Virus record (IMG/VR): IMGVR_UViG_2671180454_000012
Strand: one strand, 5' to 3'
Source: a virus
Lineage: Duplodnaviria; Heunggongvirae; Uroviricota; Caudoviricetes
Length of the DNA: 5,043 nucleotides
In this document: positions 1-5,043 of the stretch, piece after piece
Numbering within the stretch: position 1 is the stretch's first letter
Layout of the letters: each line of letters begins with the position of its first letter
Position numbers and translations under genes: made by a program
Notes under the pieces: model-generated
The model's database searches: none
Told to the model about the DNA's origin: nothing
What the model saw: only the letters and a program-made list of their open reading frames with translations

Positions 1-84
1 TGTCAGTTATCATCTTCGGTTACGGTTATCGGCAGAACGCCCTGCCGCTGACAAGAGCTTATTTGCCTGACCAATCTACTCCAC

Positions 85-102
85 ATGATAGATAACTATC
101 AT
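85..102. promoter_or_regulatory. Operator-like inverted repeat ATGATAG-ATAA-CTATCAT
   Basis: Perfect 7-bp arms with a 4-bp spacer; no gene assigned nearby. Confidence 0.25.
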
Positions 103-174
103 TTATAGCATTTGGCTTATTAGCCTTTATTTTTCATTGAGTTGCAAACAATAAGCTCGTCAAAAACAGTAAAA

Positions 175-240
175 TTAACTACACCATTAACTACACCGTT
201 CCACGAACAATATCGAACAACCACGAACAAAGATCAACAC
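175..240. repeat. Short tandem direct repeats (iteron-like)
   Basis: TTAACTACACC at 175-185 and 187-197. CCACGAACAA at 201-210 and 221-230, with related TATCGAACAA at 211-220, giving a 10-bp period. Confidence 0.5.
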
Positions 241-421
241 GCTTTAATCGTTATCATTTTCCGGCTATCAGTCATGAAACCAGTTATCGGCATCAGGCCC
301 ACCAGCGTGAAGCGTTTTTCATTTTTCGCGGGTATAAAAAATCGATGGGGCTGGCAGTCCGGAAGACGTCAGGGTACAGAGATTTGACCCGCCCCTCCCT
401 GTGCATGCGCACAATAAGTAA

Positions 422-445
422 CCGAAGGCGGAATTCCGCCCTCGG
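422..445. other. GC-rich hairpin; possible weak minus-strand terminator or the hairpin of a degenerate third copy of the intergenic module
   Basis: CCGAAGGCGG - AATT - CCGCCCTCGG (9 of 10 bp pair). GACCCGCCCC at 379-388 lies upstream on the plus strand, matching the start of the GC-box of copy 1. Confidence 0.35.
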
Positions 446-477
446 TACTCACATATGAGAAACGATATTTCTTCCAC

Positions 478-622
478 CGATACCCTTTATTTGGGTATCG
501 CGAGTAAGCCCCAAAATCTGGGTGTTACTCTTACTACCCAAACTACGGGTAGTTTCCGTAGTTTCATAGTCGAGTTGCAGATCTGCAACTCGCCACCAGT
601 TGCTAAGTGCATTTTTGCACTT
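478..622. other. Cluster of four consecutive stem-loops or palindromes in non-coding DNA
   Basis: 478-500: CGATACCC / GGGTATCG, 8 bp, 7-nt loop. 540-564: AAACTACGG / CCGTAGTTT, 9 bp, 7-nt loop. 571-592: the 22-bp palindrome. 605-622: AAGTGC / GCACTT, 6 bp. Confidence 0.6.
571..592. repeat. Perfect 22-bp palindrome CGAGTTGCAGATCTGCAACTCG
   Basis: Direct observation; exact twofold symmetry centred on AGATCT. Function unknown. Confidence 0.9.
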
Positions 623-639
623 TCGGTAATATCAACCAG

Positions 640-921
640 TTACCGCCGTAAGTGCTCCGGCTTCCTCCACTGGTAAGTATTTTTCGCGCTCTCCCTCCGT
701 TGTTGAGAACGGCGACGGTATGCCAGCAACTCAAGAACTCTGGTTCGTATGTTGCGCATATCCACGCCGTTAAGCTCAATACCGTCACGGCGCATTACCT
801 CATCCACCACACGCGCATAATTTTCAGCGGTCACGCTGTCCGGTTGCATGGCCTGTTCGTCAACCTGCTGGCTGATTCCGGCGACGCGGCGGATTAATCC
901 CAGTATTTCGGCTTCTGTCAT
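640..921 (-). CDS. Hypothetical 93-aa protein downstream of the capsid gene (possibly a head-completion or head-tail connector protein by gene order only)
   Basis: ATG at 919-921 preceded by a GGGGG tract. The translation looks like a real protein with a basic C-terminal tail. No family recognised; the functional guess rests on synteny in HK97-like head modules. Confidence 0.45.
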   Translation of the reverse strand: MTEAEILGLIRRVAGISQQVDEQAMQPDSVTAENYARVVDEVMRRDGIELNGVDMRNIRTRVLELLAYRRRSQQRRESAKNTYQWRKPEHLRR

Positions 922-1060
922 TGTGCCCCCATCGCGCTGGTTAAGAAAACAAGCTCAGATTTTTTGTAAAGAATCTGTCACGCTAAAAGATGTCGAACAA
1001 AAATTAACCACAATCATCATCTTTTTTGCATCAACTACATTAAAAACAACAGGTTACACA

Positions 1061-1176
1061 CATGATGATGATGACGATAAAACCACAAAAATGCGCTTTT
1101 TTCCGCGCCGACCCGCCCCGTGGACAGGCCCCCCCCACCAGGAGGACCCGCAAAAAAGGCGGCTGCTGCCGCCTTG
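1061..1176. repeat. Conserved intergenic module, copy 1 (same architecture as 3675-3790)
   Basis: See copy 2. Contains a C8 homopolymer (1129-1136) and an (ATG)4 triplet repeat (1062-1073). Confidence 0.6.
1150..1176 (-). terminator. Rho-independent terminator immediately after the capsid stop codon
   Basis: On the minus strand: stem GGCGGC / GCCGCC with loop AGCA (plus 1158-1173), followed by T6 (plus A-run 1152-1157). Confidence 0.7.
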
Positions 1177-1179
1177 TTC

Positions 1180-3340: not shown

Positions 3341-3394
3341 TGTCATACCAGCAAAAGAATTGACTAATTATTGCCACGCCAGCACAATTAAGAC

Positions 3395-3470
3395 TCATCA
3401 TTTCGGTAGTGGCAGTATCCTTTGTCGCTGACAAAGCGCCTCCGGTGGCACCATCGGGGCGCTTTTTTTT
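3395..3470 (+). ncRNA. Candidate small RNA (~75-85 nt), transcribed divergently from the head-gene operon
   Basis: Sigma70-like promoter TTGACT (3360-3365), 17-bp spacer, CACAAT (3383-3388); two stem-loops and a U8 tail downstream; no plus-strand protein gene available to be terminated. Prediction only. Confidence 0.3.
3436..3470 (+). terminator. Plus-strand rho-independent terminator
   Basis: GC-rich stem GCGCCUC (3436-3442) / GGGGCGC (3456-3462), 7 bp including one G-U, followed by T8 (3463-3470). Preceded by a second hairpin CTTTGTC-GCT-GACAAAG (3420-3436). On the minus strand only TTT follows, so it is plus-oriented. Confidence 0.6.
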
Positions 3471-3485
3471 GCGCCTGTTTTTTGT

Positions 3486-3637
3486 NNNNNNNNNNNNNNN
3501 NNNNNNNNNNNNNNNNNNNNNNNNNNNNNNNNNNNNNNNNNNNNNNNNNNNNNNNNNNNNNNNNNNNNNNNNNNNNNNNNNNNNNNNNNNNNNNNNNNNN
3601 NNNNNNNNNNNNNNNNNNNNNNNNNNNNNNNNNNNNN
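3486..3637. other. Run of 152 N: assembly gap or masked sequence
   Basis: Direct observation. Anything spanning it, including the ORF-track entries with X residues, is uninterpretable. Confidence 0.99.
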
Positions 3638-3674
3638 TAAAAATTTTTATTTTGCCATATATCAATAACTTAAA

Positions 3675-3790
3675 CTGGTGGTGATGGTGACATAAAAATC
3701 AAAAAATACGCCTTTTTCCGCGAACCGCCCGCCCCGTGGACAGGCCACCCCCACCAGGAGTACCTACAAAAAAGCCGGATTGCTCCGGCT
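3675..3790. repeat. Conserved intergenic module, copy 2 (terminator hairpin + GC-rich box + A/T tract + triplet repeat)
   Basis: Aligns to 1061-1176 by eye. Exact shared blocks are CCCGCCCCGTGGACAGGCC (3728-3746 vs 1112-1130) and CCCCCACCAGGAG (3748-3760 vs 1132-1144). Both copies have a hairpin plus A6 run at one end and a TGR triplet repeat at the other. Confidence 0.6.
3766..3790 (-). terminator. Rho-independent terminator after the SSB-like gene
   Basis: On the minus strand, 15 nt after the TAA stop: stem AGCCGGA / TCCGGCT with loop GCAA, followed by T7. Confidence 0.65.
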
Positions 3791-3805
3791 TCTGTCACTC
3801 GTTGC

Positions 3806-4228
3806 TTAAAACGGTATGTTATCCCCGTACGGATCATCATTCCCCGCCTGTTGTTTGGCCCTGTTCAGTGCATCAGTGGCCTGCCCCTGTTGGCCTTTTT
3901 TACCGCCCGGTCGCGCCGTTCTGGCACTGATTACACTGTCTGCGATAACCTGCCAGCCCTGCCGCGTTTCTCCGTTCTGGCCTGTCCACTGGCTTACCTG
4001 CATGTTACCCGCCACGCTCACCAGCTCGCCTTTCTGGTGCTTTGCCAGTGCGTCAGCCTGTCTGCCAAACGCCAGGACGGATAACCATATCGTCGCCGTT
4101 CCGTCATCTGCCTGGCTGCACGGCAGGGGAACCGCCATACTCGCCATCGTCATTTGCGTACCCTTGCTGGTGGTCTTTAACTGCGGGTCAGCCACCAGCC
4201 GCCCGTAAGCCGCTATCTGTGCTGTCAT
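3806..4228 (-). CDS. ssb: Single-stranded DNA-binding protein (SSB-like, OB fold), 140 aa
   Basis: ATG at 4226-4228 preceded by GGAGAG with an 8-nt spacer. The translation parallels E. coli SSB (I.GRL..DP near the N-terminus; W..V..FG...A.....KG..V.V.G; a Gly/Gln-rich linker) and ends in the acidic tail ...DDPYGDNIPF, matching the conserved SSB D-D-D-I-P-F tip. Confidence 0.8.
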   Translation of the reverse strand: MTAQIAAYGRLVADPQLKTTSKGTQMTMASMAVPLPCSQADDGTATIWLSVLAFGRQADALAKHQKGELVSVAGNMQVSQWTGQNGETRQGWQVIADSVISARTARPGGKKGQQGQATDALNRAKQQAGNDDPYGDNIPF

Positions 4229-4470
4229 GCTGTCTGCTCTCCGGTTTTAACGTTGATGGTTGTCACCTGTTCCGCTTCGGCAATCTCCCGTTCTGTCAGC
4301 GTGGCAAAGTTTGCCGCCGTCGTGGTCATGAATGCGCTTATCAGTTCGGGATGTGCTTTCGCGTATCCTTCCCCGGCGTTGCGGTCGATGATTTTTATCG
4401 CCACCCTCAGCCAGTGTTCTGTCAAATCAAGGGCGTGAGATTGTGGTTTTTTGGCGTGCTTCGTTGTCAC
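4225..4470 (-). CDS. Hypothetical 81-aa protein, first gene of a two-gene operon with the SSB-like gene
   Basis: GTG start at 4468-4470 preceded by GAGG with a 7-nt spacer. Its TGA stop overlaps the ATG of the downstream gene (ATGA at 4225-4228). No family recognised. Confidence 0.5.
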   Translation of the reverse strand: MTTKHAKKPQSHALDLTEHWLRVAIKIIDRNAGEGYAKAHPELISAFMTTTAANFATLTEREIAEAEQVTTINVKTGEQTA

Positions 4471-4514
4471 AGGCTTTACCTCACAGCAATAAAATAAAAT
4501 TTTTGCATTTTAAC

Positions 4515-4745
4515 CCTTCACCTGTTCACCTTTTGCAATTTTCCCTTTTTATTCATGATGTTAATGGGTTAACAGTTTCACAAAAACTATTCACCAACTG
4601 TTCACCACTGTTCACCCTTAAAGCTCAATAAAGAATCAAAAAGGTGAACAGTGAATAGTTTGGTGAACAGTTCATAAATAACTGTTCACCCTATAATATA
4701 CTGATATAAAAGACATTTATTGCAGGGTGAACAGTGGTGAACAGT
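4515..4745. repeat. Iteron array, candidate replication origin or cis-replication region
   Basis: Perfect TGTTCACC at 4523, 4599, 4609 and 4683; perfect GGTGAACA (reverse orientation) at 4643, 4662, 4726 and 4736; degenerate copies TATTCACC at 4589 and GTGAATAG at 4653. Adjacent copies sit 10 bp apart. An AT-rich tract (4488-4512) lies beside it. TGTTCACC is, from memory, the type I iteron bound by P4 alpha protein. Confidence 0.7.
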
Positions 4746-4773
4746 TATTCCATAAGTTTAATTTTTTCCATCG

Positions 4774-5043
4774 TCATTTGTGACCTATTGCACATGATGG
4801 CATCCAGTCTTCTGAATCCTCTGTCAGGGTCACATTTGAACGCAAACCGTGCTTCGTTTTCCGTTTCATATACTCCCTGCCATATTCCGCCATTGCCCCC
4901 GGCATATCTTTACCGAAGCGCGTCAGTGTTACAGGTTTACCGAATCCGTGTGCCCTCATATATGCCAGATAGGCGTGATAAAGATACCTGCGCGGACTGA
5001 ACGGAATAATTTCGGCATTACCCACTAACAGACCATCACACAT
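4774..5043 (-). CDS. 3' portion of a replication-initiator gene (candidate P4 alpha-like primase/helicase C-terminal region); frame is open to the window edge, so the true start is probably beyond 5043
   Basis: Open frame from the window edge to TGA at 4774-4776, ending about 30 bp from the TGTTCACC iteron array, as expected for an initiator next to its binding sites. Family assignment is inferred from context only; no catalytic motif was recognised. Confidence 0.4.
   Translation of the reverse strand: MCDGLLVGNAEIIPFSPRRYLYHAYLAYMRAHGFGKPVTLTRFGKDMPGAMAEYGREYMKRKTKHGLRSNVTLTEDSEDWMPSCAIGHK

Follow-up and report, generated by a model that had tools for sequence, protein, structure and literature searches.

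EcCICFT073 (Fillol-Salom et al. [quoted passage not shown] The PICI ori is described as lying directly 3′ of pri-rep and as comprising iterons and AT-rich DNA (PMC6092414), and a capsid gene is a core PICI component (PMC10085698). Deletion of the EcCICFT073 capsid gene c1499 gave no phenotype, with transfer and interference unchanged, and the packaged DNA was all phage-sized (PMC6092414), so that a structural role of PICI capsid genes stays hypothetical. PICIs "bearing a CLP_protease gene" at tRNA-Ile2 are described by Mageeney et al. (2023, NAR Genom Bioinform, PMC10111431), who mention this genotype solely as a target of helper-embedded PICIs and analyse neither its capsid gene nor its cos. 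A Gram-positive parallel is SaPIbov5, a satellite that, according to the preprint on capsid-forming PICIs (cf-PICIs), carries its helper's cos and a diverged homologue, Ccm, of the helper's HK97-type capsid protein. Here, we analyse a window of 5,043 nucleotides (virus record IMGVR_UViG_2671180454_000012) that combines a P4-like replicon with a capsid gene (Table 1).

Table 1. Features of the 5,043-nt window
Feature	Position	Strand	Evidence or description
Chromosomal DNA upstream of clpS, outside the element	1..91 (to 106)	.	Present in island-free genomes
attR core ATGATAGTTAT	92..102	-	11-mer present at both island ends
Integrase-specific att arm	107..284	-	Repeats recur upstream of int at the opposite island end
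Hairpin-rich non-coding module	285..639	-	Folding z-score -7.8 on both strands
orf93, conserved terminal PICI gene	640..921	-	75% identity to last gene of EcCICFT073
cos copy 2, downstream of capsid gene	960..1179	-	Aligns with mEp460 cos region and lambda cosN
Tripartite capsid gene: ClpP-like prohead protease, scaffold linker, HK97-type major capsid protein	1180..3047	-	Pfam CLP_protease, Phage_capsid_4
orf64 (64 aa), translationally coupled to capsid gene	3044..3238	-	ATGA overlap; called in all relatives
Leader and promoter region of orf64-capsid operon	3239..3485	-	GC-rich hairpin at 3436-3476; terminator-like hairpins
cos copy 1, downstream of ssb	3486..3805	-	Unmasked L003 sequence aligned to mEp460 cos region
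Single-stranded DNA-binding protein (140 aa)	3806..4228	-	Pfam SSB 3.9e-16; 72% identity to EcCICFT073 SSB
orf81, conserved replication-zone gene	4225..4470	-	87.5% identity to EcCICFT073 counterpart; PHROG 1231
Replication origin	4471..4773	.	8 exact and 3 degenerate TGTTCACC iterons, both orientations, flanking AT-rich stretches
C-terminal origin-binding domain of P4-alpha-like Pri-Rep	4774..5043	-	PDB 1KA8, E=1.9e-22; Pfam Pox_D5

The window contains one end of a PICI inserted next to clpS

Two Shigella sonnei contigs (L003 and L008) contain the whole window exactly, and the flanks were read from these. In L003, the island measures 12.1 kb between cspD/yljB and clpS, or ~10 kb once its two IS elements are subtracted. 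The gene map of the flanking contigs shows integrase, AlpA, DUF4222, primase-helicase, SSB and capsid fusion, and no portal, terminase, tail or lysis genes within the island. The same gene set, in ~10 kb, is carried by intact relatives located at two further sites in E. coli; E. coli 2013C-4081 is one strain with an intact copy. The annotation of the flanks, a check proposed in the preliminary description, shows integrase and AlpA and no tailed-phage structural module; this agrees with one of the two options of that description, a capsid-encoding satellite-like element, and speaks against the other, a small phage with P4-like replication.

Positions 1–106 of the window are chromosomal and lie outside the element. 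The segment is found in 5425 of 5426 complete E. coli genomes, with 98–100% identity among the sampled matches; in island-free genomes it overlaps yljB, and empty sites match this segment only. The attR core recurs once per island end, at 821 and 12946 of L003, and is identical to the att core given for cspD-clpS PICIs in Table S1 of Fillol-Salom et al. (PMC6092414). The adjoining att arm, with arm-type repeats GGTGTAGTTAAT (two copies at 174–197) and TTGTTCGTGG / TTGTTCGA (three copies at 201–230), is common to the same-att-site elements L002 and EcCIIHE3034 and absent from L001, an E. coli PICI at tRNA-Ile. The hairpin-rich module is conserved in L001 and in L002, a cf-PICI, but not in EcCICFT073 or EcCIIHE3034, and has no match in Rfam. 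The product of orf93 matches PHROG 1561 (2.9e-53) and is also present in L001 and L002.

All island genes in the window lie on the minus strand, and their direction and order are those of EcCICFT073. The two elements also resemble each other in size (~10–11 kb), in having two cos sites each and PICI-specific att sites, and in three proteins (orf81, SSB and orf93) that are 72–88% identical. The comparison of gene content with known satellites, as the preliminary description had proposed, leads to the prototype Gram-negative PICI: the window is the right-hand half of an EcCICFT073-family element and comprises the end of its replication zone, its entire late zone and attR. From window position 285 on, L001-type PICIs have the same replication and late zones; their integrase and att site are different.

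Between the origin and the capsid gene, the small genes noticed earlier are the 81-aa ORF, SSB and the 64-aa ORF. The two supposed regulatory modules turn out to be cos sites. The protease and capsid domains do lie near the replicon, ~1.5 kb from the iterons, but in one fusion gene rather than two genes. Their position beside the replicon is no anomaly but the normal PICI layout (PMC6092414, PMC10085698, PMC10111431).

The replicon resembles that of satellite P4

The P4-type iterons and the initiator fragment described earlier are both present. Eight exact copies of TGTTCACC lie on both strands in 4523–4743, just 3′ of the initiator fragment, and three one-mismatch copies lie at 4567–4595; with at most one mismatch allowed, the whole window contains 13 matches versus 4.5 ± 2.0 in shuffles, and none of 200 shuffles reached 13. 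Together with the AT-rich stretches (4531–4590 and 4691–4725), this layout fits the published PICI ori. The crr and ori of P4 contain the identical octamer, the type-1 iterons of crr likewise lie directly 3′ of the initiator gene, and the arrangement +,+,−,−,+ in the window resembles one P4 crr repeat. EcCICFT073, in contrast, has iterons CTGTCTACC, and the origin-binding domains are 35% identical.

The origin-binding fragment shows ~50% identity to the P4 alpha domain 1KA8 by tblastn and is 51% identical to P4 alpha residues 690–771. An IS3-family insertion just past the window edge separates it from the rest of the gene, the order in L003 being a 510-aa N-terminal Pri-Rep part, the IS and a 93-aa C-fragment. 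For orf81, the orthology tables of Fillol-Salom et al. (PMC6092414) list SSON_0875, of 81 aa, as orthologous to an EcCICFT073 gene.

Two direct cos copies are related to those of mEp460-type phages

Sequence comparison identifies two modules (repeat family D1; 1047–1175 and 3663–3791) as a lambda-type cos present in two direct copies, with homology to its counterpart in lambdoid phages of the mEp460 type. Over 157 nt, copy 1 in its unmasked L003 sequence shares 76% identity with the mEp460 cos region (E=8e-26); it has a cosQ/cosN-like part at 3700–3775, a core CCACG/GGGCGGGCGGTT/CGCGG and the ssb terminator hairpin at ~3772–3795. Its cosB-like part falls under a run of N in the window (3486–3637), and its content was deduced from six relatives, which have the same 53 nt in the masked stretch. 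Copy 2 matches mEp460 cos with 82% identity along 87 nt and has a cosN-like core CCACG/GGGCGGGTCGGC/GCGG around 1105–1121 and a terminator hairpin at ~1153–1172. The motif GGGGCGGG occurs three times versus 0.2 expected, the third copy (388–395) lying inside the hairpin-rich module. The cos motif is conserved: it precedes terS in phages and immediately follows the fusion gene in satellites, among them those of other genera. Simple packaging from cos to cos does not sit easily with two direct sites just 2.6 kb apart.

In EcCICFT073, the cos copies are inverted and carry a foreign cosB, whereas those of the window are direct and mEp460-type, with a cosB-like part. Unlike EcCICFT073, the element lacks RppA and PerC; no Rpp homologue was found, and the element encodes no TerS. 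The cos identities (76–82%), together with 51% protein identity of the capsid fusion, predict an mEp460-type lambdoid phage as helper.

The capsid fusion forms a satellite-specific clade

The capsid gene is read in the window as two ORFs, 1902–3047(−) (CLP_protease, 3.7e-33) and 1180–1938(−) (Phage_capsid_4, 1.5e-49). When intact, it encodes a protease-scaffold-capsid fusion of 629 aa; a 13-bp deletion at ~1983 frameshifts the window copy and splits it in two, making it a pseudogene. The orthologous fusion of L001-type PICIs, 90% identical at the nucleotide level, is intact, and the NCBIfam model NF045540 recognizes the intact orthologue with 890 bits. The domain order of the fusion is that of the tripartite capsid gene of Gifsy-2 / mEp460-type phages (NF045540), whereas EcCICFT073 has a lambda E-like capsid and a D-like decoration protein. 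The closest phage homologues, in mEp460, cdtI and Stx phages, are 51% identical over the full length.

The satellite copies differ from these phage genes in forming a clade of their own, with ~34 linker residues fewer after the protease domain; by sequence comparison, this clade spans at least six genera (Escherichia/Shigella, Kluyvera, Yersinia, Buttiauxella, Moellerella and Rahnella). The preceding gene is always the portal gene in phages, and always orf64, never portal, in the satellite lineage; orf64 immediately upstream of the fusion recurs in satellites of six genera and never in phage contexts. The product of orf64 matches PHROG 4934 and is possibly a ribbon-helix-helix DNA binder; its AF2 model is weak (pLDDT 67), with an extended N-terminus followed by two helices. 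No conserved ORF was found in the leader region (3239–3485).

The capsid gene could be a passenger without function in the satellite life cycle, acquired by recombination from the late genes of a helper, and we regard this as unlikely though deserving serious attention. The c1499 result, the pseudogene state of the window copy and the view of Mageeney et al. that the late zone is dynamic and made up of genes captured from helpers all agree with it. Moreover, the two halves of the fusion differ sharply in nucleotide identity to L001 (96% versus 82%), indicating recombination. However, dN/dS is 0.10–0.11 and similar in both halves, so the fusion is under purifying selection, and the protease Ser and His motifs are kept. 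Monophyly of the satellite copies, their consistent shortness and their constant coupling to orf64 across six genera, together with the low dN/dS, argue for long-term selection in satellites over repeated recent capture.

Other classifications of the element

Loss of portal, connector, HNH and terminase genes from a cf-PICI by deletion would also leave a capsid-bearing island, and L002, a complete cf-PICI, occupies the same att site and shares the integrase arm, the primase/orf81/SSB backbone, orf93 and the hairpin-rich module at up to 99% identity. This origin is nevertheless very improbable: BLAST detects no resemblance between the fusion and the capsid or protease of cf-PICIs, six genera share the order orf64-fusion-cos as a separate clade, and the island cos belongs with the Nu1/gpA lambdoid sites rather than with those of HNH terminases.

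A P4-like satellite relying on a P2-type helper, suggested by the shared iteron octamer, the 51% identity that links Pri-Rep to P4 alpha in the helicase and origin-binding region (including the 1KA8 fold family), a Vis/AlpA-like protein with 45% identity and an integrase of the P4 type (Arm-DNA-bind_3), is hardly credible, because Sid, Psu, Delta, Epsilon and cI homologues, the cI RNA region and the P2/P4 19-nt cos are absent, P4 alpha has no match in its N-terminal primase domain, the island cos is lambda-type, and the SatelliteFinder definition of P4-like elements demands the missing components (PMC10085698). P4 further lacks a capsid gene, and the predicted helper is lambdoid rather than P2-like. 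The label "P4-type" consequently fits the replicon and, loosely, int and AlpA, but the class is PICI.

An ordinary, possibly defective, temperate lambdoid prophage with a P4-like replicon and its structural module outside the window is equally hard to credit: the capsid fusion and cos are clearly lambdoid in origin, and one S. sonnei assembly (L006) runs on into terminase, portal and tail genes, but L006 departs from the other assemblies inside the hairpin-rich module, which points to a rearrangement or chimeric join, while the island in L003, L004, L005, L007 and L008 stops at clpS and has no structural genes, intact relatives at three att sites are 10–11 kb with no portal, terminase or tail genes, and the fusion lacks the portal gene that precedes it in phages.

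Proposed life cycle and decay in S. sonnei

Taken as a whole, the locus is, with high probability, an EcCICFT073-family PICI at cspD/yljB-clpS that would be helper-packaged when intact and has decayed in S. sonnei. By analogy with its family, a lambdoid helper would induce the island via AlpA, and the island would excise. The C-terminal winged-helix domain of the P4-alpha-like primase-helicase would then bind the TGTTCACC iterons and fire the origin that immediately follows its own gene, assisted by the island SSB; homology is seen in the window, and the function is extrapolated from P4 and EcCICFT073. The resulting concatemers would carry two direct cos copies, whose cosQ, cosN and cosB-like parts are akin to those of mEp460, cdtI and Gifsy-2-type phages. 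Given this cos homology, helper TerS/TerL could cut and package the island with neither an Rpp adaptor nor a satellite TerS, a packaging function that we infer from the homology.

The island would also express orf64 and its own, satellite-specific version of the protease-scaffold-capsid protein. The fusion would most likely participate in the assembly of helper heads or redirect it, a putative role modelled on that of Ccm in SaPIbov5. The analogy crosses unrelated lineages: Ccm is a capsid homologue only, with no fused protease, and its size redirection is proven, whereas redirection by the present fusion is a prediction.

The S. sonnei element is a fixed, decayed copy, in which an IS splits pri-rep, IS1 adjoins int and the 13-bp deletion frameshifts the capsid gene; it is very probably immobile. 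The element is already catalogued, a 14.3-kb PICI at 922309–936578 of S. sonnei Ss046 appearing in the supplementary tables of Fillol-Salom et al. (2018, PMC6092414), and ranks as an ordinary representative of a PICI family already described. To this record, our analysis adds the decay of the S. sonnei copy, the lack of Rpp and TerS, the identity of the repeated modules as lambda-type cos copies, and a satellite clade of capsid genes.

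The window belongs to an att-bounded island in Shigella sonnei

Two retrieved contigs of S. sonnei, L003 and L008, include an exact copy of the window's reverse complement. In L003, the 11-mer ATGATAGTTAT is present at both island ends, 12.1 kb apart, and subtraction of two IS elements leaves an island of ~10 kb, in agreement with the PICI definitions used here (Fillol-Salom 2018; SatelliteFinder PICI), which describe a small island of about 8–15 kb with direct repeats. E. coli genomes without the island match window 1–106 only, which places the junction at about 92–106. From left to right, L003 carries cspD and yljB; the integrase, an IS1, AlpA and four small genes including one for DUF4222; the N-terminal part of the primase-helicase (510 aa), an IS3-family element and the primase C-terminal fragment; and orf81, SSB, orf64, a split capsid gene, orf93 and clpS. 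All but one of the element genes point in one direction, and the credible genes of the window are all on the minus strand (table below). The integrase contains the Arm-DNA-bind_3 and Phage_integrase domains and the regulator is a Phage_AlpA protein, the combination expected of a PICI.

Features of the window, from its right end to its left end
Feature	Coordinates	Strand	Remark
Primase-helicase C-terminal fragment	5043–4774	-	89 aa; Pfam Pox_D5
Non-coding stretch	4773–4471		TGTTCACC repeats
Exact copies of TGTTCACC	4523–4743		eight, in both orientations
orf81	4470–4225	-	81 aa
SSB	4228–3806	-	
Non-coding stretch	3805–3239		includes run of 152 N
129-nt direct repeat, cos copy 1	3663–3791		
Run of 152 N	3486–3637		
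orf64	3238–3044	-	64 aa
Capsid fusion gene	3047–1180	-	ClpP-like protease, then HK97-type capsid domain
Second non-coding stretch	1179–922		
129-nt direct repeat, cos copy 2	1047–1175		
orf93	921–640	-	93 aa
Non-coding DNA	639–1		
Hairpin module	285–639		355 bp, non-coding
Third GGGGCGGG	388–395		
Arm-type repeat GGTGTAGTTAATGGTGTAGTTAAT	174–230		att arm

The preliminary description hesitated between a capsid-encoding satellite and a small phage with a P4-like replicon. Annotation of the flanks bears out the satellite reading: the att-bounded island has an integrase and lacks portal, terminase, tail and lysis genes, and the modules of a temperate tailed phage (head, packaging, tail and lysis) are found neither within the island nor, as a full module, in the flanks. 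The capsid fusion is the sole structural gene in L003, in L001 (an E. coli PICI at tRNA-Ile) and in the other copies. A capsid-morphogenesis gene with no full structural, tail or lysis module accords with a PICI, of which such a gene is one of the five core components (De Sousa et al. 2023, PMC10085698).

Intact relatives, ~89% identical, are present in 142 of 5,426 complete E. coli genomes; one example, a ~10 kb island at tRNA-Ile, has the same gene set with a fusion gene of 629 aa. The tRNA-Ile island of E. coli 2013C-4081 (NZ_CP027573.1, about 3903.5–3913.7 kb) is intact. The cspD-clpS site with core ATGATAGTTAT is listed as a PICI att site in Table S1 of Fillol-Salom et al. 2018 (PMC6092414), and the supplementary tables of the same paper contain the entry 'Shigella sonnei Ss046 ... 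PICI 922309-936578, 14.3 kb'. This entry is the element of the window, and the island is already catalogued.

Two side observations concern the right end. The arm-type repeat of the att arm is the 'att site core' given for EcCIDI14, a PICI reported inside an IS110 transposase (Table S1, PMC6092414); the core as tabulated may be PICI arm sequence. In L006, a divergent S. sonnei assembly (GCA_900160285.1, FUCV01000007.1), the right end departs from the other copies at ~4640, inside the hairpin module and equivalent to window ~440, and beyond this point are a truncated gpA terminase gene, a portal gene and a 675-aa fusion gene of the type of mEp460, a lambdoid phage of the presumed helper type. 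A rearrangement or a chimeric join of the contig would account for this end, which nevertheless documents a candidate helper-type head module in S. sonnei.

The products of orf64, orf81 and orf93 have no credible match in Pfam and NCBIfam at lenient thresholds and fall in PHROGs families of unknown function; the single-sequence AlphaFold model of orf64 comprises only two helices at low to moderate confidence (pLDDT 67). ARAGORN finds neither tRNA nor tmRNA, and an Rfam scan of the window and the whole unmasked element returns nothing beyond sub-threshold plant miRNA matches. The latter (MIR5380/MIR821, window 4509–4747) are produced by inverted iteron arrays and palindromes and are not real RNAs. 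The hairpin module contains about ten hairpins or palindromes (folding z = −7.8, both strands) and is ~90–99% conserved in L001 and in L002, a cf-PICI at cspD-clpS; it is absent from EcCICFT073 and EcCIIHE3034 and has no Rfam match.

A P4-related replicon in a PICI

The octamer TGTTCACC is present in eight exact copies, with three one-mismatch copies near. In the whole window there are 13 matches with at most one mismatch, as against 4.5 ± 2 in shuffled sequences, none of which reaches 13. The P4 'ori type 1 repeat', annotated in crr and ori, is the same octamer, and the initiator fragment aligns with the P4 alpha origin-binding domain of known structure (PDB 1KA8; E = 1.9e-22, about 50% identity). 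The P4-type iteron module of the preliminary description is borne out by these matches. The element shares with PICIs a primase-replicase gene directly followed by an origin in which iteron sets surround an AT-rich region (PMC6092414); in the S. sonnei copy, the primase-helicase gene is interrupted by an IS.

P4-like satellites are defined by Psu, Delta, Sid, Epsilon, AlpA, alpha and int (De Sousa et al. 2023, PMC10085698). A tblastn search of every P4 protein against the whole island in L003 and against L001 gives matches limited to alpha residues 320–771 (51%), int (23%) and Vis/AlpA (45%); Psu, Delta, Sid and Epsilon/Ash are absent from both, and the N-terminal primase domain of alpha is unmatched. 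GGCGAGGCGGGGAAAGCAC, the 19-nt cohesive end of P2 and P4, is absent from the window and L003. The element thus has the alpha-type primase-helicase and the TGTTCACC iterons of P4. Since only alpha, int and AlpA are matched and the P2/P4 cohesive end is absent, we classify it, on its gene content, as a PICI carrying a P4-related replicon and not as a P4-like satellite.

Two direct repeats are lambda-type cos sites

The 'short regulatory modules' of the preliminary description turn out to be cos sites. The window contains a 129-nt direct repeat, both copies of which contain CCACGGGGCGGG, and GGGGCGGG occurs three times against 0.2 expected. We aligned both copies with lambda cos and with the stretch of mEp460 that immediately precedes terS; each copy matches across the cosQ-like, cosN and cosB-like parts. 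Specifically, the core of lambda is ACG/GGGCGGCGACCT/CGCGG, and those of the window are ACG/GGGCGGGCGGTT/CGCGG and ACG/GGGCGGGTCGGC/GCGG. Identity to mEp460 cos is 76% over 157 nt for copy 1, with its masked part supplied from L003 (E = 8e-26), and 82% over 87 nt for copy 2. The two lambda-type cos copies would serve as a packaging signal of the PICI kind, predicted to exploit a helper.

The run of N corresponds to 53 nt, GTGTCGAATTAGGTTGTTTTTTGTTCGACGCCGGAACGTTCCCGAAAGCATTT, in all six relatives with exactly matching flanks, indicating that the mask or gap exceeds the underlying sequence by 99 nt. The stretch beneath it, taken from the relatives, is the cosB-like part of copy 1. The third GGGGCGGG was rejected as a further cos, as it lacks the flanking CGCGGAAAA and the cosQ-like parts and lies in a module common to a cf-PICI with its own terminase.

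The S. sonnei element encodes neither Rpp, the adaptor protein of EcCICFT073-type PICIs, nor TerS, and a search for an RppA homologue found none. Taken with the phage-like cosB-like part, the lack of an RppA homologue suggests that the helper terminase recognizes the cos of the element directly.

One tripartite capsid gene of mEp460 type

The protease and capsid ORFs noted in the preliminary description are real (CLP_protease, 3.7e-33; Phage_capsid_4, 1.5e-49), but they are two halves of one fusion gene rather than two genes. The intact E. coli orthologue has 629 aa; the window copy is frameshifted by a 13-bp deletion at about 1983. The orthologue scores 890.6 bits (cut-off 475) against NCBIfam NF045540, 'ClpP-like prohead protease/major capsid protein fusion protein', and the frameshifted window copy has the same domains. 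The closest phage homologues are 51% identical from end to end; they are the protease/scaffold/capsid genes of mEp460, cdtI, CP-1639 and several Stx-converting lambdoid phages. Gifsy-2 reportedly has the same 'tripartite capsid gene' (Effantin and colleagues, 2010). An mEp460-type capsid gene and an mEp460-type cos both point to one helper group.

The satellite protein retains the protease Ser and His motifs and lacks ~34 linker residues after the protease. In the comparison with the E. coli orthologue, the protease-scaffold part has a dN/dS of 0.10 and the capsid part one of 0.11, values that indicate purifying selection on the capsid gene. No similarity to the capsid or protease of L002, which has the same backbone and att site, is detectable, and searches for a lambda-E capsid or decoration-protein homologue and for PerC found none. 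Nucleotide identity between window 1180–3047 and L001 12892–14781 is mosaic, at 96% in the protease-scaffold half and 82% in the capsid half, which argues for recombination inside the gene.

Satellite copies form one clade beyond Escherichia

We scanned one genome per species and typed the contexts of the matches. The best matches (57–63% identity) are from Kluyvera, Yersinia, Buttiauxella, Moellerella and Rahnella, and all are in satellite context: each locus has an integrase and, immediately before the fusion gene, orf64; three of the six have a detectable PICI-type primase, and none has a portal or large terminase gene inside the island. Matches of 43–53% are in phage context, in the order terS, terL, W, portal, fusion, decoration, tail. 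In a midpoint-rooted neighbour-joining tree without support values, the satellite copies form one clade, which spans at least six genera with constant orf64 coupling; their proteins are shorter, at 629–648 aa. Of the eight phage loci checked, six have the cos motif CCACGGGGCGGCG...CGCGGAAAACGGCTAGTTT ~140–240 bp upstream of terS; among the six satellite loci, four have it immediately behind the fusion gene.

In three Kluyvera and Buttiauxella satellites (L020, L021 and L023), the cos that follows the fusion gene is directly followed by a terS-like gene, whose product is 35–41% identical to mEp460 TerS; the Escherichia and Shigella elements have orf93 in its place. The satellite of L021 (Kluyvera genomosp. 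1, NZ_LGHZ01000021.1), with orf64, fusion gene, cos and terS-like gene, sits between the portal gene and the decoration and tail genes of a surrounding prophage, and looks like a helper-embedded PICI as described by Mageeney et al.

Comparison with known PICIs

PICIs have a four-zone layout of integration, Bro, replication and late zones, most reference Gram-negative PICIs carry a capsid gene, and E. coli PICIs at tRNA-Ile2 'bearing a CLP_protease gene' have been mentioned (Mageeney et al. 2023, PMC10111431). EcCICFT073, the prototype Gram-negative PICI, which we located in CFT073, has the same gene order: int, AlpA, Icd-like, DUF4222, primase and origin, then an 85-aa ORF, SSB, a small ORF, the capsid gene and a terminal 93-aa ORF. 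Identity to its counterparts is 87.5% for orf81, 72% for SSB, 75% for orf93 and 35% for the origin-binding domain; the last value fits the different iteron of EcCICFT073, CTGTCTACC instead of TGTTCACC. EcCICFT073 also has two cos sites, which are of lambda type (GGGCGGCGACCT) and mutually inverted. However, its cosB is foreign and requires the adaptor RppA, whereas the window element has a phage-like cosB-like part and no RppA homologue; and EcCICFT073 combines a lambda E capsid with lambda cos, whereas the window element combines an mEp460-type tripartite gene with mEp460-type cos.

From the cf-PICI set, which includes portal, head-tail connectors, HNH, TerS and TerL, the element has the protease-capsid fusion alone. 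The comparison of gene content upholds the P4-like replicon and yields a PICI, and neither the P4-like satellite nor the cf-PICI set of components is present in full. L002 (NZ_OZ001728.1, 127.6–156.0 kb) is a complete cf-PICI (capsid, protease, portal, connector, HNH, TerS and TerL) at cspD-clpS, and has the att arm, primase, orf81, SSB, orf93 and hairpin module in common with the window element. On this common backbone, the late zone appears to have been swapped. The 16.5 kb 'phage' record vB_KppS-Ant (LR881103.1), from an induced prophage, has a primase C-terminus 80% identical to the window initiator fragment, genes for capsid, protease, portal and terminase, and hardly any tail genes, and resembles a cf-PICI entered under a phage label.

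Decay of the S. sonnei copy

The S. sonnei island carries an IS1 adjoining int, an IS3-family element inside the primase-helicase gene and the 13-bp capsid-gene deletion; Ss046 has an additional IS21-family element near clpS. The frameshifted 381-aa capsid product is recorded in thousands of assemblies, including Ss046 (CP000038.1); the assembly collection has about 2,900 blocks with it, indicating that the capsid lesion is fixed in S. sonnei. The copy is probably inactive and very probably immobile, and is a clear example of satellite decay in an IS-rich genome.

Discussion

The att borders and gene content, the homologies to P4 and mEp460, the missing Rpp, TerS, portal and tail genes, the purifying selection on the capsid gene and the decay are read from the sequence; by analogy with the family (PMC6092414, PMC6739421), an intact element would be induced in a helper-dependent manner through AlpA, would replicate from the iteron origin and would be packaged at cos by the helper terminase. 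Four copies of the roughly 10.2 kb island amount to about 41 kb, near the 44.5 kb of the mEp460 genome, so that packaging of multimers in normal heads is as plausible as small capsids.

We consider it unlikely that PICIs with orf64, the tripartite gene and a complete helper-type cos, and without Rpp and TerS, represent a distinct, old sub-lineage that builds its own, possibly smaller, shell on the helper portal, to be filled by unmodified helper terminase. Bearing on such a sub-lineage are the monophyly of the satellite copies, purifying selection, the shortened linker and the constant coupling to orf64, which might then serve as a DNA-binding or assembly cofactor. If it existed, it would stand in function between classical PICIs, which rely on helper capsid proteins only, and cf-PICIs, which make all of their head and packaging machinery.

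To have a capsid gene after the replicon is standard in this known family, and the element itself is listed in the founding paper on Gram-negative PICIs; it carries little weight as a discovery, and its modest value lies in its anatomy. The type of capsid gene and the type of cos vary in step with each other and with the presumed helper, and the subtype of the window seems to need no Rpp adaptor. The matching of cos and capsid types, the absence of Rpp and the satellite-specific, orf64-coupled tripartite clade appear to be undescribed in the PICI papers cited here, and a search for literature linking PICIs with mEp460 found nothing relevant. The pairing of cos with capsid, the Rpp absence and the satellite-specific capsid clade bear on what PICI-encoded capsid genes are for.
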